From a bacterium (GTDB lineage Bacteria; RBG-13-61-14; DATKZS01), in the NCBI GenBank assembly GCA_963674965.2, contig CAXXFL010000003.1:192001-256000 (forward strand): DNA of 64,000 nucleotides, read 5' to 3'. The position numbers and the translations under genes were made by a program. The notes beneath the pieces are model-generated. The model searched no databases. It saw only the letters and a list, made by a program, of their open reading frames with translations, and was not told the origin of the DNA. Position 1 is the stretch's first letter; each line of letters starts with the position of its first letter. Positions 728 through 10,498 of this stretch are shown piece after piece.

Positions 728-760
728 AAAAAAAGCGGGGACGGAATAATCCGTCCCCGC
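728..760 (-). terminator. Rho-independent terminator closing the PqqD-lipoprotein-peptide unit
   Basis: Perfect 11-bp stem GCGGGGACGGA/TCCGTCCCCGC with a 4-nt loop, followed by 7 T on the minus strand. Confidence 0.85.
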
Positions 761-782
761 CGGTTGGTTAGTGGTTTAAAAA

Positions 783-902
783 TTATCCGAAGGCCGGGGC
801 CGCGGTCCCGCCGGTGCCTGGAATCGAGGTGGCGCTGGCGAAAGTAATGTTAACGAGCGGCTCGTTCTTCTTAACCGAAGGCTTGGTGTATTTCTTCTTC
901 AT
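783..902 (-). CDS. 39-aa putative RiPP precursor with a lasso/RRE-type leader (MKKKYTKPSVKKNEPLVNITFASATSIPGTGGTAAPAFG)
   Basis: Strong AAGGAG RBS before ATG 902; YxxP and L-x3-T leader pattern; lies between the lipoprotein stop (929) and a terminator; PqqD gene two genes upstream. An alternative in-frame ATG lies at 926. Confidence 0.8.
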   Translation of the reverse strand: MKKKYTKPSVKKNEPLVNITFASATSIPGTGGTAAPAFG

Positions 903-928
903 GGATTTCTCCTTTCTGGCTTCCATCG

Positions 929-2779
929 TTACTGAACGCATACGTGCGACGGCCACTGCTGGTAACCGCCCTGGTTCGCGGCGGTGCCCACGTTCCTGGG
1001 GGTGGCCATACCGCTATGCTGGATGTTGTAGTTGGAAAGCTCGCCCTGGGCGCCTCTGAGGATGTAATCCATCTCGGGCACCGCCGGGTCGTTGCATCCC
1101 TGGTTGGCGTCGTTCAGGTAAGCGGCGCCGCCGAAGGGATAGCAGGGGTCGTTCCAGCCGTCACCCGCGAAGCCCTTGGCGTAGAAGGTGGCCGCGTCGG
1201 TGAAGCTCTTGGTCCAGGACTGCTTGATCGAGGTGTAGCCGGAGAAGGTGTCCAGGAAGAAACTGGCTCCCAGTCCGCTTTTCCCGGCCTGGACCTTGAA
1301 GAAGTAAAGGCACATGATCAGATCGAAATCGGCGTCCGCGCCCTGCTGGTTGATGTTGACGTTGTAATAGGTGTAAGTGGCGCTGGTGGTCATCCAGCGC
1401 TCCTCAGGCCAGTAAACGCTGACCACGCCGCTCTTGGGCACGATGAAGTTCGCGATGCCGTAGTCGCCGGCCCAGGCGGGCATGTAGCCGGCGCTCAACA
1501 TGCGCATCTCGCCGCCGTACAAGGTGTAGTAACGGCCGGCGGAACTTCCGGCGCTGATGAAGCCGTTAAAGGTCTCGAACTCGCCAGTGGCGGCGTACAT
1601 GGCCAGCCAGCCGGCACTGGTGTCGCCTGGCGTGTTGAGCGCGTTGGGCAGCTCGAACTGGGTGTAGGACGGATAGTGCTTGTTGCACATGGTGGCGTTT
1701 TCGCAGGGCATGACGGCCCTGGTGGAAGCGCCGCGCACTATGGTTCCGCCCTGGGAGTTGCCCTGAGAGGTGACCACGTTCAGCACGAAGGGATTGTACC
1801 TTAAAACGTAGGCGATCTGGTTGTAGTAGAAATATCCGGACTGCTGCCTGTAGTAGTTGCCCACTTCCTGGGCCTCGAGCCTGTCGGGATACTCGACGCC
1901 GACGGCCATGGCGAAGTACTGGCCCGGGCTGACCACGTTGGCCACGGACGCGCCGTAGCCGGACATGACGTTCGAGCGGCGAGGGTTACCAATGGCGTAA
2001 ATCCCTCTATTGGGGGCGCTGGACAGGTTGTCCGCCAGGTCGGTGGCCATCAGGTAGAAGGTGGTCCTGTCATAGAAGTCGTAGCGGGAGTCGGTGGTCG
2101 GGTCGTCCCAGGGGAAGTAGTCCGCCGTGACGGTGGCGCGGAACTCGTAGTTGCCGGCCTGGTTTCCGAAGTCCCAGATCGTGCTCCTGGAGCCGCACTC
2201 GGGATGGATGGCCTGGAAGGGCTTTTTCATGGTTACGACCGTCGATCCGGCGCAACCCATCTCGTTGAAGGGCTCGTAGCCCAGCGAGTAGTAGATGCCG
2301 TCCTCAACGTAGCAGTAGCCGCCGCCGTTGATGGACTGCTGGCAACCGGTGTCGCCCGCGCCCGGAAGGTGGCAGGTGGTACCGTCAAGGGCGATGAAGT
2401 CGGCGTTGTCGAACCTGGCGCTGACGCAGGTCTGGCAGGCCGAGGTGAACACGAAGGCGTTGGCCATGTACTCGTCGGAGTCCAGGTTGACGAGCCTGAC
2501 CCAGCCGGTCGACTCGGCGCCCACTCCGCTGGTCGGGGTGTCGCCCATCTCGAGCGCGACCGTATGGCCGCCGATAACCGCCGTGGCGGCGCCGGAGCCG
2601 TTTCCGATGATGATCTGTCCGTCCTGATAGGATATCGGGATGGACTCGAAGTTAGCCTGGTCGCCCGGGGTTACCGAATCCTCGGAACTCGAGGGCCCCA
2701 TGCATCCGGCAAACAAGAGCCCGGCGCATACCAGCGCGAGACCCATTAATTTGCCCGTCTTGAAAAACCTTTTCATCAT
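929..2779 (-). CDS. Large Cys/Tyr/Gly-rich lipoprotein of unknown function
   Basis: 616-aa ORF with lipobox LFAGC, AAGGAG RBS and host-like codon usage. Confidence 0.85.
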   Translation of the reverse strand: MMKRFFKTGKLMGLALVCAGLLFAGCMGPSSSEDSVTPGDQANFESIPISYQDGQIIIGNGSGAATAVIGGHTVALEMGDTPTSGVGAESTGWVRLVNLDSDEYMANAFVFTSACQTCVSARFDNADFIALDGTTCHLPGAGDTGCQQSINGGGYCYVEDGIYYSLGYEPFNEMGCAGSTVVTMKKPFQAIHPECGSRSTIWDFGNQAGNYEFRATVTADYFPWDDPTTDSRYDFYDRTTFYLMATDLADNLSSAPNRGIYAIGNPRRSNVMSGYGASVANVVSPGQYFAMAVGVEYPDRLEAQEVGNYYRQQSGYFYYNQIAYVLRYNPFVLNVVTSQGNSQGGTIVRGASTRAVMPCENATMCNKHYPSYTQFELPNALNTPGDTSAGWLAMYAATGEFETFNGFISAGSSAGRYYTLYGGEMRMLSAGYMPAWAGDYGIANFIVPKSGVVSVYWPEERWMTTSATYTYYNVNINQQGADADFDLIMCLYFFKVQAGKSGLGASFFLDTFSGYTSIKQSWTKSFTDAATFYAKGFAGDGWNDPCYPFGGAAYLNDANQGCNDPAVPEMDYILRGAQGELSNYNIQHSGMATPRNVGTAANQGGYQQWPSHVCVQ

Positions 2780-2916
2780 TAAGTTCTCCTTTCAATAATG
2801 ACTTTAAGTTTCAAATCCTAAATCTCTTACGAAAAATCCCTTTCAAAACACGATTAAGCTTGTATCACCCCCTCTTCGATTTTCCTTAAATTCCAATACA
2901 TTGATTAAACCGATTA

Positions 2917-3186
2917 CTATTTTATAAGACCTTGTTCCCTTAAATCCGAAATAAACTCCTTAATGTCCCCCGCCGCCCGATTGGGCTCGACCTCGAAGGC
3001 CTCGCATAAAGATTTTACCATATCTTCCTCTTCGGCGCCGCCTTCTTTTTCGATCAGCTTCCACAGGAAACAGCCCGTCTCGTTCAGACTGAAATAAAAT
3101 TTGGTCTCGAGATGCAAAAGGACCGCGCTTCCGTCATCCAAATCCGTAAATACCACGTCTTCCCTTGCGCTATACTTCTTTCCCAA
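2917..3186 (-). CDS. PqqD family protein / RiPP recognition element (RRE)
   Basis: 89 aa with VLLHLETKFYFSLNETGCFLWKLI...LCEAFEV...DIKEFISDLREQGLI, the typical PqqD pattern. Confidence 0.9.
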   Translation of the reverse strand: MGKKYSAREDVVFTDLDDGSAVLLHLETKFYFSLNETGCFLWKLIEKEGGAEEEDMVKSLCEAFEVEPNRAAGDIKEFISDLREQGLIK

Positions 3187-3205
3187 TTTTATTTTCTCTC
3201 ACCCT

Positions 3206-3222
3206 TGCAATAATCGTTCCGG
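3206..3222 (-). promoter_or_regulatory. Candidate sigma54 (-24/-12) promoter of the PqqD gene
   Basis: Minus strand CCGGAACGATTATTGCA = GG-N10-GC, close to the consensus TGGCACG-N4-TTGC. Confidence 0.6.
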
Positions 3223-3252
3223 CTAGAGTATTCAAAACCGAAAACGTTTTAA

Positions 3253-3265
3253 AATCAATACTTTA
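3253..3265 (+). promoter_or_regulatory. IHF-binding site
   Basis: AATCAATACTTTA matches WATCAR-N4-TTR exactly and lies between the sigma54 site and an upstream inverted repeat. Confidence 0.55.
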
Positions 3266-3804
3266 GAAGCGCTACAACCCTATCGAAAAATGTCATATGT
3301 CCCGAAAATCATGTACTTTTTTCGAGATAAAGACATAAAAGTCTAACAATTTTGCGCACTTCATCCTTTTCTACGCGACTCTATTGATTTAGCATATACC
3401 CAAATAATTGTCAATAGAAAAATTAAAAATTTTCATCTAAACCTATCCGATGAATAATAGACGCGTAATTCCATAAAACGTCACCCCTGGTCATCTCCTC
3501 GCAAGGCCAGAGTTATGTCAAGGCAACCCATCCTTTTCTCATGATCCGGAAAGAAGCGTGCCGTCTCAAGCCGCATGGACCATGACGGGCATTCGAGCGA
3601 AATCTTACGACGTCGCCAAGAAACCCTCGAAATTTTTTCAACGACTTCGTCCGGCCGGGCGAAAAAGCCCTCTCGACCGTCGGTCCTACTTGCCCTTGGC
3701 GGCCGCGAGCTTACGGGCCGGTCCCGTCTCCGGATATTCCAAATCCGGCGCCATGCCTTGAAGTTCGATCCATATAATGGTAACATTTTTGCAAATTCCA
3801 GGAA

Positions 3805-5022
3805 TTGAAAGGAAAGGCGTTGAAAAAGGCATCTTTATTTATAGAGTTGATTTTGATTTTCTCCCTCTTCGCGGGCCTTGCGGGGGCCAAGTGCGGGGAC
3901 AAGGACAAGTCGCCGGCCAAGGACCCCCTTAAGGAAAAGGCCCTCGAGCACTACGCCGAGGGCAGGCGGCTTTTCTTAAGTTGCGATCCCAACGTTTACG
4001 CCAAGGCCAAGGACGAGTTCGACATGTCTCTTTCCTTCTGGGAGGACAACCCCGAGGCCCTGGCGGCCCGGGCGGAGACGATCTCGATGTGGTACGGCTT
4101 CATGCTCCCCGAGGAGGCCTTCCAGGCGGCTTACATGGACGCCCAGCGGGCGGTCAGGCTGGACCCCGATCTGGACATGGGCTACAGGGCCATGGCCGAC
4201 CTTTTCCGGCACCACCGCGACCCGGAAACGGGAGAGTTCGACGTGGAGTACGCCCTTTCCGTGATCGAGAGGGCCATGGGCAAGAACCCGGACTCGGCGG
4301 AGAACCTGTACGTGAAGGGCTCGATTTACCTTTCCCGGGACCCGGCGGCGGCCATCGAGATACTTCAGAAGGCGGTCTCGTTAAACCCTAACCTGGGCAA
4401 GTCATACTTTAACCTGGCCAGCGCGCGCCAGATGCTGGCCGACCGGATGAAACTCGAGCTGGCCAACGACCCGGAGAAGCTCGAGGAGGCCAGACAGGCC
4501 ATCGACGCCCATTACGCCGAGGCGGAAAGGTTGCTTGGCTCTTACGTGCGGATAGTTCCGGGAGACCTGGCGGGATACTGCTCGAGCGGCATCGTCAAGC
4601 AAAGGTTGGGAAAAACGGACGAGGCTGAAACCATGTTCCAGGAAACGGTCAAGATCAACCGGTCGCCGGACAAGTCCCAGGACGTCTGGAGGATACTGGC
4701 CTATTTGCAGCTCGCCTCGATCGCGGAGACGCGGGATTCCGACCTCGAGGCGGCCAGGCTCTACCTGGACGGGGCCTACAAGCTGGCGCCCATGAACCGG
4801 GAAACCCTTCTGCGGCTTATCGACTTAAGCGGCAAACAAAAAAACGAGGATGACGTAAAACGCTTCGCCGAGGAGCTTCAAAAGGCCCAAACCACCATGC
4901 GCGAAAGGCTGGCTCCCCAGGCGGGCGACACGGCCGGGACCGCCGCCGGCGACGCGGCGGCCCCGATGCCCGGCGGCGACGAAGCGGCCGAGGGGGGGGA
5001 CACGACCCGGCCCTCCCCCTGA
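3805..5022 (+). CDS. Exported TPR-repeat protein, possibly a lipoprotein
   Basis: N-terminal hydrophobic segment followed by Cys; several TPR-like units (QRAVRLDPD, QKAVSLNPN, AYKLAP). The start could be TTG 3820. Confidence 0.8.
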   Translation: MKGKALKKASLFIELILIFSLFAGLAGAKCGDKDKSPAKDPLKEKALEHYAEGRRLFLSCDPNVYAKAKDEFDMSLSFWEDNPEALAARAETISMWYGFMLPEEAFQAAYMDAQRAVRLDPDLDMGYRAMADLFRHHRDPETGEFDVEYALSVIERAMGKNPDSAENLYVKGSIYLSRDPAAAIEILQKAVSLNPNLGKSYFNLASARQMLADRMKLELANDPEKLEEARQAIDAHYAEAERLLGSYVRIVPGDLAGYCSSGIVKQRLGKTDEAETMFQETVKINRSPDKSQDVWRILAYLQLASIAETRDSDLEAARLYLDGAYKLAPMNRETLLRLIDLSGKQKNEDDVKRFAEELQKAQTTMRERLAPQAGDTAGTAAGDAAAPMPGGDEAAEGGDTTRPSP

Positions 5023-5084
5023 CGGAAAGGCCGCCTCCTTGGGTCATGGGCCCGCTTCAGGGGCCTGAAAGGAGGACCGAAAAG

Positions 5085-5681
5085 ATGTTGAACTCGGGCG
5101 TCCTGGTACTGAACAAGTCGTTCATGCCGGTACACGTGACCACCGTTCGCCGCGCTCTCACGCTTCTTTACCAGGGCGTCGCCAAGGCCGTCAACGAGCA
5201 ATACGAGGTCTTCAACTTCGACGACTGGAGCCAGCTCAAGCCGCTGGAGGGCCAGCCGTCGATCGGGCTGGTGGGAGGCTCGATCCGGGTCCCTCGCGTC
5301 ATCCTTCTTACCACCTACAACCGCCTGCCCAAGCGGCACGTCAGGTTCTCTCGTCTCAATATATTCCTCAGGGACAAGAACACCTGCCAGTACTGCGGCC
5401 AGACCCTTCCCCGAAAGGAACTCAACATCGACCACGTGATCCCGCGCTCGAGGGGCGGGACCTCGGTATGGGACAACGTGGTCTGCTCCTGCTTCGAGTG
5501 CAACAGGAGAAAGGGGGGAAGAACGCCCGAGGAGGCGAGGATGCGCCTGATCCGCAAGCCGGCCCGGCCCAGGTGGACCCCCAGCTTCGGTTTCAGGTTC
5601 GATCCCCATAATTACAGGGAATGGGTGCCCTTCCTCGACTTCATAGACGCGTCCTATTGGCACGCGGAGCTTATGGAATGA
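5085..5681 (+). CDS. HNH endonuclease
   Basis: RDKNTCQYCG...NIDHVIPRSRGG...WDNVVCSCFECNRRKG; GGAGG RBS before ATG 5085. Confidence 0.92.
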   Translation: MLNSGVLVLNKSFMPVHVTTVRRALTLLYQGVAKAVNEQYEVFNFDDWSQLKPLEGQPSIGLVGGSIRVPRVILLTTYNRLPKRHVRFSRLNIFLRDKNTCQYCGQTLPRKELNIDHVIPRSRGGTSVWDNVVCSCFECNRRKGGRTPEEARMRLIRKPARPRWTPSFGFRFDPHNYREWVPFLDFIDASYWHAELME

Positions 5682-6145
5682 AGAAAAAAATCGTCCTGGC
5701 CGTTATCGCCCTGGCCGCCGTCTCCTTTGGATGGTGCGCTACCAAGAGACTGTTCCAGGACGACGAGAAAAAAATCCTCGAAACCATCGAGCTCATGCGC
5801 CAGGCGGCCGAGGCCAAAAACACCGACGCCTTCATGGAGCACTTCTCGGGCGACTATTCAGACAATAGCGGAAACTCCAAGCTGATCGTCTACGGCATGG
5901 TCAAGAACATACTGGGCGGGCTGGAGAAATTAAACGTCACGGTCAAGGACGTGGACGTGCTCGTGACGGGAGACACCGCCTATGCCACCGTGACCGTGAC
6001 CGCGGACGCGGTAAAAAGAGGAAAACGGATCGAGCCCTTCGGGACCGAGCAAAACCCCGAGCGGCCTCGCGTGACCTTCCGTAAAAGCTCCATGGGCAAT
6101 TGGAAAATCGTCAAAGTGGACGACGTCAGAAGCAATTCATTTTAA
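5678..6145 (+). CDS. Exported NTF2/SnoaL-like protein
   Basis: ATGA overlap with the HNH stop; signal peptide; AEAKNTDAFMEHFSGDY...WKIVKVD pattern. Confidence 0.7.
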   Translation: MKKKIVLAVIALAAVSFGWCATKRLFQDDEKKILETIELMRQAAEAKNTDAFMEHFSGDYSDNSGNSKLIVYGMVKNILGGLEKLNVTVKDVDVLVTGDTAYATVTVTADAVKRGKRIEPFGTEQNPERPRVTFRKSSMGNWKIVKVDDVRSNSF

Positions 6146-6380
6146 AATCATCAATTTATACGGCTCATTCCGCTCCGGAATGATTCCCGACTATTTAACG
6201 CCCACTTTATATGAGGGTAATACTGGATAGGGCCAATAAGCTCAACTATCCGTTATTAAAATATTATTCCCATTCCATAAGCGGGGACCCGGCTTTGTCT
6301 CGACTCGTTCCGCCGCCTTGGAAAAGACCGCCATCCAATAAAGTTCACCCTTTCAGGCCATGAATTTTTTCATGTTTGAG

Positions 6381-6566
6381 GAGCCTCTTGCAAAATTCCC
6401 GCTTTGGAGTGCGGCGGCTCGACGCCGCTTTTCTTCCGAGCGGCTTGACGCGAGGCAAGCAGGTGTATTAATAGGCCTTGTCAAGCCAAGGCCATCGAAA
6501 GCGGTCTCAAGCGACCGAACTCCAAAGCGGCTATGCCGCAAAGAAAAGTACTTTTGCAAGAAGCTC
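6381..6566 (+). mobile_element. MITE copy 1 (186 bp) enclosing a REP-like doublet
   Basis: TIRs GAGCCTCTTGCAAAA / TTTTGCAAGAAGCTC; 4-bp flanking duplication TGAG; three more copies in the window. Confidence 0.85.
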
Positions 6567-6711
6567 TGAGAAAACAGAAAAAACGAAACCTCCCTTCCAT
6601 AGTTTTTGGTCTGGAAAAAACACGCGGTTATGTTAAATCGTCAATATCCGGTATATGAAGCCGATAACGTCAATATTCCTAAACAACCGTTATAAAATAA
6701 TAATAATAAAC

Positions 6712-6740
6712 AAAGCCCCGGAAATCCATCCGGGGCCCTT
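6712..6740 (-). terminator. Probable terminator after the FmdB gene
   Basis: Hairpin GCCCCGGA-N6-TCCGGGGC followed by a T-rich run on the minus strand. Confidence 0.6.
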
Positions 6741-6758
6741 CGAGATCAAAAAAGACGG

Positions 6759-7082
6759 TCAGGAGGCGGTGGAGCCAGCCGTGGCTTTATTTTCCGGGGA
6801 CTTGGACGTGGGTTTGGTCTCGGTCTTAGGTTCGCTTTTAACCTCGGTTTTCGACTCGGTGGAAGGGGCTTCTTTTTCCTTGCCCGCCCCGTTGGCTTTC
6901 GTCTTCCCTCCATAGTCGGTTACGTACCATCCGCTGCCTTTCAGATGAAAGGAACTCTCGCTGATAATTTTCCTGACCTTTTTCTTTTTACAGATCGGGC
7001 ATCGCGTAAGCGGCTTGTCGTTTATCCCCTGCCATTCCTCGAATATACCGCATTCGGGACATTCGTACTCATAGATAGGCAT
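6759..7082 (-). CDS. FmdB family zinc-ribbon protein
   Basis: MPIYEYECPECG...CPIC...FHLKGSGWYVTDY followed by a K/S/T/E-rich tail. Confidence 0.92.
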   Translation of the reverse strand: MPIYEYECPECGIFEEWQGINDKPLTRCPICKKKKVRKIISESSFHLKGSGWYVTDYGGKTKANGAGKEKEAPSTESKTEVKSEPKTETKPTSKSPENKATAGSTAS

Positions 7083-7121
7083 TTTAACAACCCCCAGAAG
7101 ACCTGGATTTAATTAAATATT

Positions 7122-7148
7122 TTGGCACTCGCTCATTCCGAGTGCTAC
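7122..7148. promoter_or_regulatory. CIRCE element (HrcA operator)
   Basis: TTGGCACTC-N9-GAGTGCTAC against the consensus TTAGCACTC-N9-GAGTGCTAA; lies between the promoter and the FmdB start. Confidence 0.85.
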
Positions 7149-7186
7149 ATAGCCGGTATTTAACGGCTTTTTTGCTCCCGTTCCTA

Positions 7187-7214
7187 ATTATAACCATACG
7201 GGCCGGTTTGTCAA
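7187..7214 (-). promoter_or_regulatory. Sigma70 promoter of the FmdB gene
   Basis: Minus strand TTGACA-N16-TATAAT. Confidence 0.75.
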
Positions 7215-7249
7215 GCCGCTCGAGGCGCCCGCGGAAAAATTTTACCGCC

Positions 7250-8284
7250 TCATTTGTAGAAGACCGGCTGGGTAAGGGCCACCTTGCCGTCCTCGTCGGT
7301 TACCTTCACCCTGACGTAAAGTTCGTCTCCCTTGACCCGGTATATGCCGTACAGGCCCTCGGCCGTCTCCAGGACCTCTCCCTTGGCCCCTATGAACTCG
7401 ATTCTGCACGGCTTTTCCGCCTCGACCCATACCTGGATCGACTCGGCCGTGACCTTGTATTGCTGCAGAAGCACTCCCGTGGAGCTGTAAAATTTCCCCT
7501 CCCTGATGGCCTGGAGAATTTTCTCCTGACTGCGATCGAGGGCGTCAACCATGATAAATCCACCGCCCGGCGGGTCCCCGATGAGGGGGTTTTTATGCAC
7601 GAACTTGTGGGCGTCGTCCGTGGCCATGCCGTAAAATACGTAGCCTTGGGTCAGAAGCTGGTCCCACAGGGGCTCGGCCAGGGCGTTGTAGGAACCCGGC
7701 TGGGCGTTGATGACCTCGAAATGGTGAATGTTCTCGAGGGCCTTGAAGTCATCGGCGGTGACGAAGGCCAGGGGCGTGATCGGGTGGTTGAGGACCGGCA
7801 CTCCTCCCTGGGCCAGGACGTCGTCTATGGCCCTCTGGTAGGCCGTGATTTTATCCTCCCCAAAGGCCGGGCGGATATAGCTTTTTATGCCCAGGCCGTT
7901 CACGTGCCATTTCATGGTGGTGATTTCCTCGCCCTTTATATATAGAAGCCCCTCCGGGGCCTCGAGTCCCTCGTGCCAGTAGTTGTGGTCGGTGAAGACG
8001 ATGAAATCGTAGTCGTGGTCCGCGTACCAGTTCAGCGTGTTCTCCGGCGGGCCGTCGCCGTGGCGCGGCATCCTCTCCCCGTCGGTGTCGGAGTGGCAGT
8101 GGGTGTTGCCCTTGTACCAGTTGGACGCGAAGTAAGGCTCGAAGGCCATCCCCTCCCGGTTGGCCGCGGCCGGCTCGGGCATCTCGAGATATTGCTTCTT
8201 TATCTCCGGCGGGACCGAGGTCTGGGAAAAAGAAGCCCCGGGTAAAAGCAGCAAAAAAGCGAAAAGGATAAGATACTTTTTCAT
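7250..8284 (-). CDS. Secreted PHP-domain metallohydrolase (CehA/McbA-like)
   Basis: Signal peptide; KGNTHCHS, FTDHN, GEEIT, NHP and TDDAH motifs. Confidence 0.85.
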   Translation of the reverse strand: MKKYLILFAFLLLLPGASFSQTSVPPEIKKQYLEMPEPAAANREGMAFEPYFASNWYKGNTHCHSDTDGERMPRHGDGPPENTLNWYADHDYDFIVFTDHNYWHEGLEAPEGLLYIKGEEITTMKWHVNGLGIKSYIRPAFGEDKITAYQRAIDDVLAQGGVPVLNHPITPLAFVTADDFKALENIHHFEVINAQPGSYNALAEPLWDQLLTQGYVFYGMATDDAHKFVHKNPLIGDPPGGGFIMVDALDRSQEKILQAIREGKFYSSTGVLLQQYKVTAESIQVWVEAEKPCRIEFIGAKGEVLETAEGLYGIYRVKGDELYVRVKVTDEDGKVALTQPVFYK

Positions 8285-8488
8285 GGCCGACTCCTTCGAA
8301 TTTTTCCCGGCGGCCCGAGGATGGGGACCCGACGCCGCCGGCCAGAATCTATTATAGTCTATTACGGCGAGAGGAAGTCCTCAAGCCAGGCCTCCGGGCG
8401 CGGCCGCGAGTCTTGCCCATGGAACGAGAGTGTTTTTCTTCCTTTCTTTTTTCTGGAATAGCATGGCGCGCCAAGCTACAATAGCCAT

Positions 8489-10498
8489 ATGCGTCTTCCA
8501 CTCCGGGCCAGGCTTTTGTTCGTCATCGTCATCGGGGTGTTCGTGCCGATGGCGGTGTGTCTGGTTTTCATGATACGGGCGCACCGGCAAAACCTCGAGT
8601 CGGCCTTCCTGCGCCAGGGCAGGACCTTGGCCAACCAGATAATCGTCACCCGGCGCTGGCTTTCCATGCACGGCGGCGTCTACGTTTTCAAGTCGCCGTC
8701 GGTGAGGCCCAGCCCATACATGGAAAACTCCGAGACCACGACCCGCTCGGGCGATCCCATCAGTCTCAGGTCCCCCTCCCTGGTTTCCCGGGAGCTTTCC
8801 GAGCTTAGCGAGAGGGAGGGTCTTTCCACCTTCCGCATCGTGAGCGACAAGCCCATCAACCCCGCCAACTCTCCCGACGACTGGGAGACGGCGTCTCTCG
8901 CCGCCTTCCGGGAAGGGTCCCCCGAAACCCACGACGCGCCGGCCGAGTCGGACCAGACCTGGTTCAGGTACATGGCCCCCCTCCGGACCGAGGCTTCCTG
9001 CCACAAGTGCCACCAGGAAAGCGGGTATCCCGTGGGCTCGGTCCGGGGCGGCGTGAGCGTGCGCTTCCCGGTGGGCGAAGTCCTGGCCGAGTCCCGGGAC
9101 AAGGAGAAAACCCTGGCCGCGATTATGGCCTTTATCGGTCTGGCCATGATGACGCTGGTGGCCGCCGGGACCAGGAGCGTGGTCTTGAAGCCGCTCTCCG
9201 CGATTTCCCGGGCGGTGGGCGGCGTCTCGGCGGGGGACTTCGAGAGCAACCTGAGAAGAGGGGCCAACGACGAGCTGGGGGACCTGGCCGAGGCGGTAAT
9301 CCGGATGCGGTCCATGGTCCGAGACTACGGCGCGAGGCTGGAAAAGGAGGTCCAGGCCCGAACCGCCGAGCTCGAGTCCCTCAAATCCAGGGCCCAGAAC
9401 GAAAGAGACTTCCTGATCAACCTTTTCGAGAAGATGGCCGACGGCATATGCGTCCTTTCCTCCGACGGCGAGAAAATAGAGTATATAAACCCCAGCCTGC
9501 GACGGACGCTCGGCCGCTCGGGCGACCTCGAGCGCGGAGATTTCCTGAGAGAGGCGGGCCTTACCGAGGCGGGCCTGGCCGGAGGATCGGGGGTCGAGTT
9601 TTTCAGGAGCGAGATCGCCGGGGCGGACGGCTCCCGGTTCTTCGACGTTCTGGCCACCTCCCTGGACGACTCGGACGGCGACTCGGGCAGGCTGCTGGTG
9701 TTCAGGGACATTACGGACAGGAAACGCCTCGAGGAAAAGCTTATCGAGGCTAACCGCGATCTCGAGATCAAGGTCCGGACCCAAACCGACGCCCTCCTCG
9801 AGCAAGAAAAGCTCGCCGCCCTGGGCGAGGTTTCCGCGGGCCTGGCTCACGAGATCAGGAACCCCCTCTCGGCCATCTTGAGCGGCATTGCCCTTATCGA
9901 GTCCAGGCGCCGCACGCCGGAGGAGGAGGACAGGATCATCAAGCTGATCAAAAAGGAGGCGAGGCGCCTCAATTCCTCCCTTACCGACTTTCTCCTCTTC
10001 GCCCGCCCGAGCCGTCCCAAGAAGGTCAGGCTCGACCTGGCCGGCTCGGTCAAGGAAATCGTCCAGCTTATCGAGGACGACGCCGAGATCAAGGGCGGGA
10101 TCGAGATAGTAACGGAGCTCGAGGACCTGCCGCCCGTTCTTTTCGACGCCGACTCTCTTCGCCAGGTTATCTGGAACCTTTCGATCAACGCCATGGAGTC
10201 CATGAACGGGGAAGGACGCCTGATCATACGCTCCCGTGACCCCGGCGGCGGCCGCTGGGTCCTGGAGTTGGAGGACCGGGGCCCGGGGATTCCTCCCGAG
10301 GTGTCCAGGAAAATGTTCGATCCTTTTTTCTCGACCAAGCGCTCGGGCGCCGGCCTTGGTCTGAGCATCGTGAGAAGGATCGTCCATTCCCACGGCGGGG
10401 AAATCACGCACCAAAACCTCGAAAATGGAGGGTCCAGGTTCACCATAACCGCGCCCGTCGAGGCCCCGGACGAGCCGGTGGAGGAAGAGGCTTTATAA
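8489..10498 (+). CDS. Sensor histidine kinase with a periplasmic c-type heme (DUF3365-like) domain, HAMP and PAS
   Basis: Two TM segments; PINPANSPDDWE and CHKCH; H-box LAHEIRNPL; N, G1, F and G2 boxes. Confidence 0.92.
   Translation: MRLPLRARLLFVIVIGVFVPMAVCLVFMIRAHRQNLESAFLRQGRTLANQIIVTRRWLSMHGGVYVFKSPSVRPSPYMENSETTTRSGDPISLRSPSLVSRELSELSEREGLSTFRIVSDKPINPANSPDDWETASLAAFREGSPETHDAPAESDQTWFRYMAPLRTEASCHKCHQESGYPVGSVRGGVSVRFPVGEVLAESRDKEKTLAAIMAFIGLAMMTLVAAGTRSVVLKPLSAISRAVGGVSAGDFESNLRRGANDELGDLAEAVIRMRSMVRDYGARLEKEVQARTAELESLKSRAQNERDFLINLFEKMADGICVLSSDGEKIEYINPSLRRTLGRSGDLERGDFLREAGLTEAGLAGGSGVEFFRSEIAGADGSRFFDVLATSLDDSDGDSGRLLVFRDITDRKRLEEKLIEANRDLEIKVRTQTDALLEQEKLAALGEVSAGLAHEIRNPLSAILSGIALIESRRRTPEEEDRIIKLIKKEARRLNSSLTDFLLFARPSRPKKVRLDLAGSVKEIVQLIEDDAEIKGGIEIVTELEDLPPVLFDADSLRQVIWNLSINAMESMNGEGRLIIRSRDPGGGRWVLELEDRGPGIPPEVSRKMFDPFFSTKRSGAGLGLSIVRRIVHSHGGEITHQNLENGGSRFTITAPVEAPDEPVEEEAL

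Follow-up and report, generated by a model that had tools for sequence, protein, structure and literature searches.

Two described peptide pathways come closest to the locus considered here: LPP, encoded by lppA-K-B-S-D-N in Paenibacillus alginolyticus (PMC13381572), and bsf, a phosphorylated lasso pathway of the paeninodin type in Bradymonas sediminis (PMC10368454). The available text on LPP states that it is not known what phosphorylated lasso-type and LPP peptides do (PMC13381572). According to the available part of the RRE-Finder survey, about half of the lasso-type discrete RREs (RRE, recognition element of RiPPs, peptides made on the ribosome and modified after translation) occur without a cyclase and peptidase, and about 300 discrete RREs found with radical S-adenosylmethionine (radical SAM) enzymes were treated as false positives (PMC7470986). 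We analyzed a 64,000-nucleotide stretch of bacterial DNA (the window; positions 192001-256000 of contig C3 in the genome under study, G000) that carries three open reading frames (ORFs) on its minus strand, encoding in order a stand-alone RRE, a large lipoprotein and a short peptide. Judging from sequence, we put at roughly two in three the probability that these genes form the substrate half of an RRE-dependent RiPP pathway that has no cyclase, is undescribed and has been retained by vertical descent in an uncultured class of deltaproteobacterial type, with enzymes that would act in trans and a role at the envelope.

An earlier note on this DNA proposed that the unit may be a satellite locus whose enzymes act in trans, and contiguous clusters in other genomes, together with orthologs in G000, now strongly support that idea. 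We compared 12 genomes of the same class (10 from the same order and two others), 48 outgroup genomes and 56 metagenome loci with an RRE. In the relative G007, the peptide gene is followed by genes for an HprK-like kinase, a radical SAM enzyme, a PD40 propeller lipoprotein, a B2-type peptidase and a GNAT protein. G011 has the kinase, the radical SAM enzyme, a lipoprotein that is propeller-type by similarity, B2 and a nucleotidyltransferase of the NTP_transf_5 family after its peptide, with a GNAT gene nearby. The unit also adjoins the enzymes in three metagenome loci (L221, L222 and L229), the first two of which share the peptide of G007. G000 has counterparts of the kinase (44% identity; 701028-702071) and radical SAM enzyme (47%; 702068-703096) at C2:701028-703096, of the propeller and B2 (B2 at 1064511-1064002), followed by a sulfotransferase gene, at C6:1066055-1064002, and of the NTP_transf_5 protein, a weaker best match, at C1:622855-621629. 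For the kinase and B2, the cluster copies of G007 and G011 and the G000 counterparts are mutual best matches. The enzyme loci sit in the interior of contigs 0.77-1.6 Mb long, so assembly does not account for the split. In terms of gene content, the enzymes of the unit very probably lie elsewhere in G000 and act in trans.

Among the orphan genes that the note suggested searching for in this genome, those for the B2 peptidase, radical SAM, HPr-kinase-like and nucleotidyltransferase enzymes were all recovered, but no asparagine-synthetase-like cyclase belongs to the system. The contiguous clusters contain no macrolactam cyclase gene, and the two full-length PF00733 genes of G000 stand in unrelated contexts. 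An asparagine-synthetase-like match beside some RRE loci is GlmS (1 of 5 checked).

Across the class, each enzyme gives a single strong match per relative. B2 is present as one copy in 12/12 relatives and in 2/48 outgroups. The kinase also occurs in all 12 relatives, with matches in 10 of the 48 outgroups at E<=1e-3 and in two at E<1e-20. The C-domain of the radical SAM enzyme was detected in 11 relatives, the enzyme not being found with this query in G008 (93% complete), and the propeller, with the query used, likewise in 11. NTP_transf_5 exceeds the cut-off once in 10/12 and sits inside the cluster only in G011, G012 and L229, standing alone elsewhere. In G001-G005 and G009, the kinase, radical SAM, propeller and B2 genes are kept together as a second locus. 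The sequences also retain their signature residues. The C6 B2 gene matches PF13471 and NF033537 (54.4 bits against a cut-off of 33), with Cys94 and His129 invariant in 13/13 sequences, and the kinase keeps its His, GxxGxGKT and DD motifs. The radical SAM enzyme matches PF04055, and its CxxxCxxC motif and five further cysteines are invariant in 10/10; we read these as SPASM/Twitch-like from the alignment, with no Pfam SPASM match at E<=0.001.

Some lineages elaborate the cassette. In G009 (L113:2-1651, 3717-8744), tandem repeats lengthen the propeller lipoprotein to 1675 aa and a Cys/Asp-rich repeat protein is encoded upstream of the kinase. In family f1 (L059:1900-4005 of G000:C6; L109, L110), genes for a sulfotransferase and a galactokinase-like protein come after B2, a place taken by GNAT in several other families; these differences possibly reflect lineage-specific tailoring.

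G000 contains a second complete cyclase-free RiPP cluster (G000:C7:733205-741331; L003:9206-17332) with a 28-aa Tyr/Thr-rich precursor and genes for an RRE, NTP_transf_5, an HprK-like kinase, a Kdo-like kinase, a B12 radical SAM enzyme, a B2-like protein and two more radical SAM enzymes. Since it brings its own RRE, B2-like protein, kinase, nucleotidyltransferase and three radical SAM genes, this cluster could in principle mature the window's peptide. However, the second RRE of G000 is tied to a separate precursor in this cluster and is only 21% identical to that of the unit, and in the relatives PqqD is matched only once in 10/12 and B2 is single in 12/12 and orthologous to the C2/C6 genes. 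Maturation by the C7 cluster is therefore largely refuted and very improbable.

Our analysis bears out the note's description of three co-oriented genes between a promoter region and a terminator, with unrelated genes on both sides and no tailoring enzyme adjoining them in G000; all three are on the minus strand. The doubt it raised, that the genes might never co-occur elsewhere, falls away, as they are always together where contigs permit. RRE, lipoprotein and peptide genes lie whole on a single contig in 8/12 relatives; in G004 and G008 they are divided over two contigs, and in G009 and G012 the contig stops within the lipoprotein gene. A lipoprotein profile built from 12 homologs matches all 10 same-order genomes, one of the two others and 1/48 outgroups (in the signal-peptide region only), and in G011, the class genome it misses, a divergent 548-aa lipoprotein occupies the same slot. 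One homolog is labelled by its source as Deltaproteobacteria bacterium RBG_13_61_14. The 32 closest metagenome RRE loci (48-71% identity) have the lipoprotein next in 28 cases, and the remaining four stop within 179 bases. Where a metagenome lipoprotein is complete (14 loci), the peptide follows in 13 and the last contig stops 95 bases on. The 24 more distant metagenome loci have no lipoprotein of the 616-aa type, and the kinase stands there instead in 15. The RRE is 45-66% identical to its class orthologs, and all nine NCBIfam models that match it do so under their cut-offs (best, NF033530, 52 bits versus 70).

The peptide has no match in Pfam or NCBIfam. It has the features of a lasso-type precursor, namely a [Y/W]xxPx[LVIAFY] leader with a penultimate Thr (motif as given in the available texts of PMC13381572 and PMC10368454), and the system includes an RRE (B1) and a B2. 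Leader residues Y, K, P, T and F show no variation among the 11 sequences compared. Across a set of 18 precursors (11 genomes and seven metagenome loci), pN/pS is 0.18/0.81 for the leader codons over all pairs, which are uncorrected and partly redundant, and 0.23 over the leader plus two codons; the leader appears to be under purifying selection. Ser or Thr occupies core position 2 in 18/18, and an [IVM]-x-[GAC]-[TS] motif is found in 16/18. The G000 precursor is the only one of its family in that genome. Searches for a precursor found none in G009, G012 or G022 (the contigs of G009 and G012 end inside the lipoprotein gene), matches in G058 were weak (E 0.01-0.3), and no precursor-lipoprotein fusion occurs among the ORFs of loci L134-L269. 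The precursors of the second order (G011, L050:15356-15673; L229:10111-10521) have 74-75-residue cores with a repeated G-T-L-T-x-x-G and the same terminal IPGTGG, and similar units occur in Polyangiaceae precursors.

Lasso peptides carry an Asp or Glu acceptor at core position 7-9. None of the 18 cores has one, none could form the ring, and there is no cyclase, so we rejected a lasso assignment. A sactipeptide or ranthipeptide was rejected as well, because the Cys donors are missing from 17/18 cores. The leader has the same register as BsfA (Y-17, P-14, L-12, I-2) in the available text of PMC10368454, which predicts cleavage after F21. The Ser or Thr at P+15 has the spacing of the phosphorylated Ser3 of the LPP consensus, as far as that source describes it (PMC13381572).

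The predicted control signals are shared too. The sigma-54 motif keeps its place in 37/43 regions upstream of the RRE (0.7% expected in shuffles), with G000 and 9/9 same-order relatives examined having it. Of these 37 regions, 19 also have an integration host factor (IHF)-type site with at most one mismatch, usually at a distance of 41-44 nt, where shuffled sequence would give about 7%. G000 encodes rpoN, and a sigma-70 scan found no minus-strand promoter-like site near the RRE start. The predicted transcript start lies only about 8 bases ahead of the RRE's TTG. Ribosome sites GAAAGGAG precede the lipoprotein and peptide genes, and a Shine-Dalgarno (SD)-like motif lies ahead of the peptide in 18/18 loci. 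Against a crude nine-gene reference, the codon adaptation index (CAI) places the lipoprotein at percentile 94 and the RRE at 2. The terminator (-26.2 kcal/mol, z -5.9) is more stable than any of 200 shuffles and follows the peptide in 15/18 loci, including the contiguous G007 and L229 clusters and not G011. Because it is present even in contiguous clusters, and given the CAI contrast between lipoprotein and RRE, the cluster probably came apart where a border already separated an abundantly expressed unit from the catalytic genes. As for RNA, one metatranscriptome contig from a related strain spans 847-2818, the lipoprotein gene and 56 nt of the peptide gene, and no contig covers the RRE; such contigs are uninformative on co-transcription, transcript ends and levels.

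The lack of an adjacent enzyme, the TTG start and the poor codon adaptation of the RRE might suggest a decaying relic or a chance assembly. Against this stand the purifying selection on the leader, the conserved promoter, SD and terminator, and enzymes that are intact across the class, and we regard a relic as scarcely credible. We conclude from the leader codon constraint and the conserved SD-like motif and terminator that, at the level of sequence, the unit is real and not a product of chance.

Table 1. Features of the unit and its surroundings, in positions of the window
Feature	Position	Strand	Description
IHF-type site (predicted)	3253..3265	-	44 nt upstream of sigma-54 motif; 0 mismatches to consensus in G000
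Sigma-54 (-24/-12) motif, GG-N8-TTGC (predicted)	3205..3221	-	Same place in 37/43 RRE upstream regions
RRE gene	3186-2917	-	89 aa, TTG start
Stand-alone PqqD/RRE, lasso-B1-like	2917..3186	-	PF05402 69.6 bits (cut-off 23.4), E 2.8e-19
Lipoprotein gene	2779-929	-	616 aa, lipobox LFAG-C26
Lipoprotein domains	929..2779	-	Signal peptide, Cys26; N-terminal beta-sandwich at about residues 44-223; cohesin-like C-domain, residues 236-616, with large inserts
Predicted beta-hairpin, residues 92-113	2441..2506	-	Near copy in unrelated membrane protein of G000
Precursor peptide gene	902-783	-	39 aa
Leader, residues 1-21	840..902	-	Y5-x-K-P8-x-V10 RRE motif; T20-F21 predicted B2 cut site
Core, 18 aa + stop	783..839	-	Gly/Thr/Ala/Pro/Ser-rich; Ser23 = predicted phosphosite
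Intrinsic terminator	734..761	-	12-bp stem + U-run
PLP enzyme (flank)	568-2		PF00291; cysteine-synthase-like by reading
TPR protein (flank)	3805-5022		
HNH endonuclease-like protein (flank)	5046-5681		PF14279

These data suggest how the pathway may have been built and may work. The ancestral order would have been RRE, lipoprotein, precursor, terminator, HprK-like kinase, radical SAM enzyme, beta-propeller lipoprotein and B2, with NTP_transf_5, GNAT or sulfotransferase genes at the end, and in G000 this cluster would have split at the internal terminator. A sigma-54 transcript would yield little RRE and much lipoprotein and peptide. By analogy with the protein families, the RRE would grip Y5, P8 and V10, the kinase would phosphorylate or polyphosphorylate Ser23, and B2 would cut after F21 to release an 18-residue linear peptide; the nucleotidyltransferase may cap the phosphate. 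The radical SAM enzyme would alter the Cys-free, aromatic-poor core near I27-P-G-T-G-G, and because Cys and aromatic donors are lacking, our best guess is C-alpha epimerization or a Thr/Ser ether cross-link. The product is likely a linear, Ser/Thr-phosphorylated and radical-SAM-modified peptide.

The lipoprotein matches nothing in Pfam or NCBIfam at E<=1. Its family is hypervariable, falling into 128 clusters at 50% identity, and its members are only 20-48% identical (alignment A7). The lipobox pattern is present in 57 of the 64 members that are full-length, with Cys counts from 6 to 28. An AlphaFold2 (AF2) model from a 78-row alignment reached a predicted local distance difference test (pLDDT) score of 86 and a predicted template modelling (pTM) score of 0.87, where an earlier model from 12 rows was poor (pLDDT 52). 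The modelled C-domain aligns with cohesin 4uyp (VIA; Z 9.7, root-mean-square deviation 2.7, 140 residues aligned) at 12% identity with about 240 inserted residues, and Foldseek returned the cohesin dyad 3l8q (E 8e-5). Ig-like adhesin domains tie with cohesin (Z 9.0-9.2), as do pilin domains. Fold scores for the N-domain are middling (Z 6.3-7.2), and the ESM Atlas gave no usable match to it or to the whole lipoprotein. A pattern search with the lipoprotein returned 18 stretches and confirmed none, and one strict dockerin motif matched 0/3885 long ORFs. A complex prediction of residues 27-616 (24-row alignment) with the 39-aa precursor scored 0.00; it was run without controls and is counted neither way.

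One contig from a related wastewater-metatranscriptome strain differs by 45 bases and two in-frame codon insertions. Forty listed differences fall in 28 codons, and because 16 of these are non-synonymous and 10 have two or three changes, this single contig suggests that the lipoprotein is under relaxed or diversifying selection, as exposed proteins are. Part of the lipoprotein also recurs elsewhere in the genome. The hairpin at residues 92-113 has a copy at residues 603-624 of a 754-aa protein with a signal peptide and a C-terminal membrane segment (G000:C5:431926-434190; L004:5927-8191), with 20/22 residues (tblastn E 4.7e-6) and 47/66 DNA positions identical; the next best family member shares 14/22. 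Silent sites in the copy have diverged, and the orthologs in G002 and G004 are without it. It is possibly a self-mimic or an old captured fragment under selection.

Paralogs of the N-domain occur at G000:C2:335647-338425 and C2:408466-411066, in two tandem 446-aa lipoproteins and an 866-aa fn3 protein. By eye, the C-part of the 446-aa lipoproteins resembles formylglycine-generating enzyme, and relatives of 850-880 aa are found in G002-G004. Strand patterns judged by eye had suggested that the N-domain is common to propeller lipoproteins and to those of clusters in other phyla; this is unsupported, because all hhalign probabilities were below 8% and a profile search returned only the class family.

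We then asked how the system looks outside the class. Of 269 loci from a pattern search based on the radical SAM alignment, the best 80 were retained, and we analyzed the 39 with near-full-length matches from outside the class. By our own profiles (>25 bits), RRE-like genes are present in 31, kinases in 29, B2 in 17, NTP_transf_5 in 11, propellers in eight and an Asn-synthase-like gene in one, where the AsnB gene lies 8.5 kb off beside a glycosyltransferase gene. Small ORFs with the same leader spacing (T at P+12) adjoin the enzymes in Myxococcota, Gemmatimonadota, Acidobacteriota, Nitrospirota and Planctomycetota, and Gemmatimonadota cores resemble those of the class in an IPG-x-G-x-PG-x-x-(S/T)-V run. 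Four representative enzymes score under every NCBIfam cut-off shown. Secreted propellers or large surface proteins flank RREs in other phyla too: a Pfam scan of 32 flanking proteins from the other-phylum loci and five from class loci and G022 returned propellers, Ig-like, YadA-head and TonB proteins as well as unrelated genes. In the outgroup G022 (L121:5882-11486, L120:6679-9785), an unrelated 917-aa lipoprotein gene precedes RRE, propeller lipoprotein, B2 and NTP_transf_5 genes, and the kinase and radical SAM genes are elsewhere, beside a beta-barrel-like protein gene. In one Longimicrobium locus (L165:11546-16149), the radical SAM and kinase genes are separated by genes for another short precursor, for a 632-aa lipoprotein and, in tandem, for three YadA-head/S74-chaperone proteins.

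Because the lipoprotein sits between RRE and peptide wherever contigs allow, the mature peptide may well act at the envelope with the two lipoproteins, the propeller binding or chaperoning it and the cohesin-like protein displaying it, a view we hold tentatively. The note had suggested that the lipoprotein may be a display scaffold, receptor or conjugation target. Such a role may be inferred from the invariant linkage, the predicted shared transcription unit and the fold. It is quite conceivable, instead, that the lipoprotein gene came along as a passenger, encoding an abundant surface protein under sigma-54 control, joined the operon in the class ancestor and has nothing but regulation in common with the pathway, and that the peptide acts as a free signal with the propeller lipoprotein as its sensor. 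In our searches the lipoprotein family is confined to the class while the RiPP machinery occurs in many phyla without it, and the lipoprotein changes quickly next to a conserved leader and RRE, which is not required of a fixed partner that binds the peptide. Against a passenger, the lipoprotein keeps its place between RRE and precursor at all loci of two orders that can be evaluated, while the enzymes scatter freely, and in G022 an unrelated lipoprotein fills the RRE-adjacent slot.

A bolder form of the envelope reading, which we consider unlikely, is a housekeeping RiPP of the cell surface: the phosphorylated, radical-SAM-modified peptide would be produced in large amounts and join the hypervariable cohesin-fold surface lipoprotein stoichiometrically, as ligand or subunit, replacing a dockerin tag, and would be handed over across the envelope by the propeller. 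If so, RiPP chemistry would serve to construct or label the surface of the cells in an entire uncultured lineage, with self recognition possible given the 22-residue copy, and related versions would exist in Gemmatimonadota, Myxococcota and Acidobacteriota. Still less probable is that the peptide is covalently joined to the lipoprotein, or is a carrier of a modified unit that is passed on, with the transglutaminase-fold B2 acting as transpeptidase. The PF13471 membership of B2, the sortase-like [IV]PxTG string of some cores and the tie of the C-domain with pilin and adhesin folds would fit such chemistry. In B2-type cleavage, however, the core is the leaving group, so the acyl-enzyme would hold the leader; the string is not in all cores and arises readily in G/T/P-rich sequence; and peptide and enzymes are cytoplasmic whereas the lipoprotein has an export signal.

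Several observations weigh against our overall reading of a trans-matured peptide with an envelope role. No exporter was recognised in the contiguous clusters, judged by eye and with our own profiles, with neighbours partly Pfam-scanned and no genome-wide ortholog search, which leaves a cytoplasmic product without an evident route to the lipoprotein. If B2 cuts after F21, the conserved Ser or Thr is at core position 2, whereas the available text on BsfK reports strict phosphorylation of position 3 and never of position 2 (PMC10368454). Since the 616-aa family is missing from the 24 distant RRE loci and from all 39 other-phylum loci, it is, by sequence, not required by the pathway generally, and several distant loci are flanked by non-lipoprotein genes (secretin-like, MscS, sulfotransferase). 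Finally, the sigma-54 motif occurs in 0/2 genomes of the second order, kin are not independent, and several metagenome loci are near-duplicates.

Elsewhere in the window, the IscB/Cas9 models match the flanking HNH protein at domain level only and far under cut-off. In a DNA run, a short palindrome at 595-628 attracts many extra contigs at high depth and is probably a small dispersed repeat.

Pairing an orphan enzyme cassette with an orphan precursor gives an uncharacterised radical SAM family, found in many phyla, a substrate on which it can be tested directly, and a core without Cys and with nearly no aromatics means that the chemistry is probably unfamiliar. It also illustrates how neighbourhood-based genome mining misreads split systems, as either half seems incomplete. 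In its single copy across the class, its conserved predicted sigma-54 promoter and its constant link to a variable surface lipoprotein, the system departs from the patchy and mobile occurrence reported for LPP and lasso clusters. These traits point to a structural or signalling job at the envelope, hinting against an antibiotic role.

Among known families, SynChlorMet (TIGR04248-04251), GeoRSP and HPr-rel-A also combine a stand-alone PqqD with radical SAM enzymes, and ScmF is the best NCBIfam match of our enzyme. The system here has one radical SAM enzyme and adds B2 and lipoproteins, and we rejected membership because scores are far under cut-off (ScmF 101.6 versus 400, ScmD 35.5 versus 100, HprK_rel_A 32.2 versus 200). 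QhpC, the gamma subunit of quinohaemoprotein amine dehydrogenase, is a radical-SAM-matured (QhpD), leader-cleaved peptide that partners a large exported protein; it is Cys-cross-linked and its partners are enzymes, whereas the core here has no Cys and its partner has the look of a structural protein. Cohesin modules, cellulosomal and non-cellulosomal, resemble the C-domain over about 140 residues. LPP, as described in the available text, shares a discrete RRE, a YxxPxV leader in which T falls at P+12 and S at P+15, an HprK-like kinase, an NTP transferase, a linear product made with no cyclase and a suspected envelope link (PMC13381572). Its own features there are a SipW-like signal peptidase and an MsbA-like exporter, with no radical SAM enzyme and no lipoproteins, and it is patchy and mobile in Bacillota (PMC13381572), whereas the system here is single-copy across a class and often split. 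The cassettes of our system instead carry a PF13471 B2 cysteine peptidase in the leader-peptidase role, plus a radical SAM enzyme and two lipoproteins, and we rejected LPP membership. The bsf pathway, from the part of its report available, shares a split B1/B2, a kinase, a nucleotidyltransferase and the leader register (Y-17, P-14, a hydrophobic residue at -12, Thr/Ile at -2) (PMC10368454). Compared with bsf, the system here has no macrolactam cyclase, no Asp/Glu acceptor and no ABC exporter seen, and has an extra radical SAM enzyme and lipoproteins. A term look-up in the available main text of PMC12710340 and PMC10288494 found no mention of a kinase, transglutaminase or lipoprotein, and within the literature covered, with full text in subscription journals outside that coverage, this combination is not described, LPP and bsf being nearest. 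We conclude that the system works like the phosphorylated lasso and LPP pathways, with a radical SAM step replacing the cyclase, and is a member of neither.

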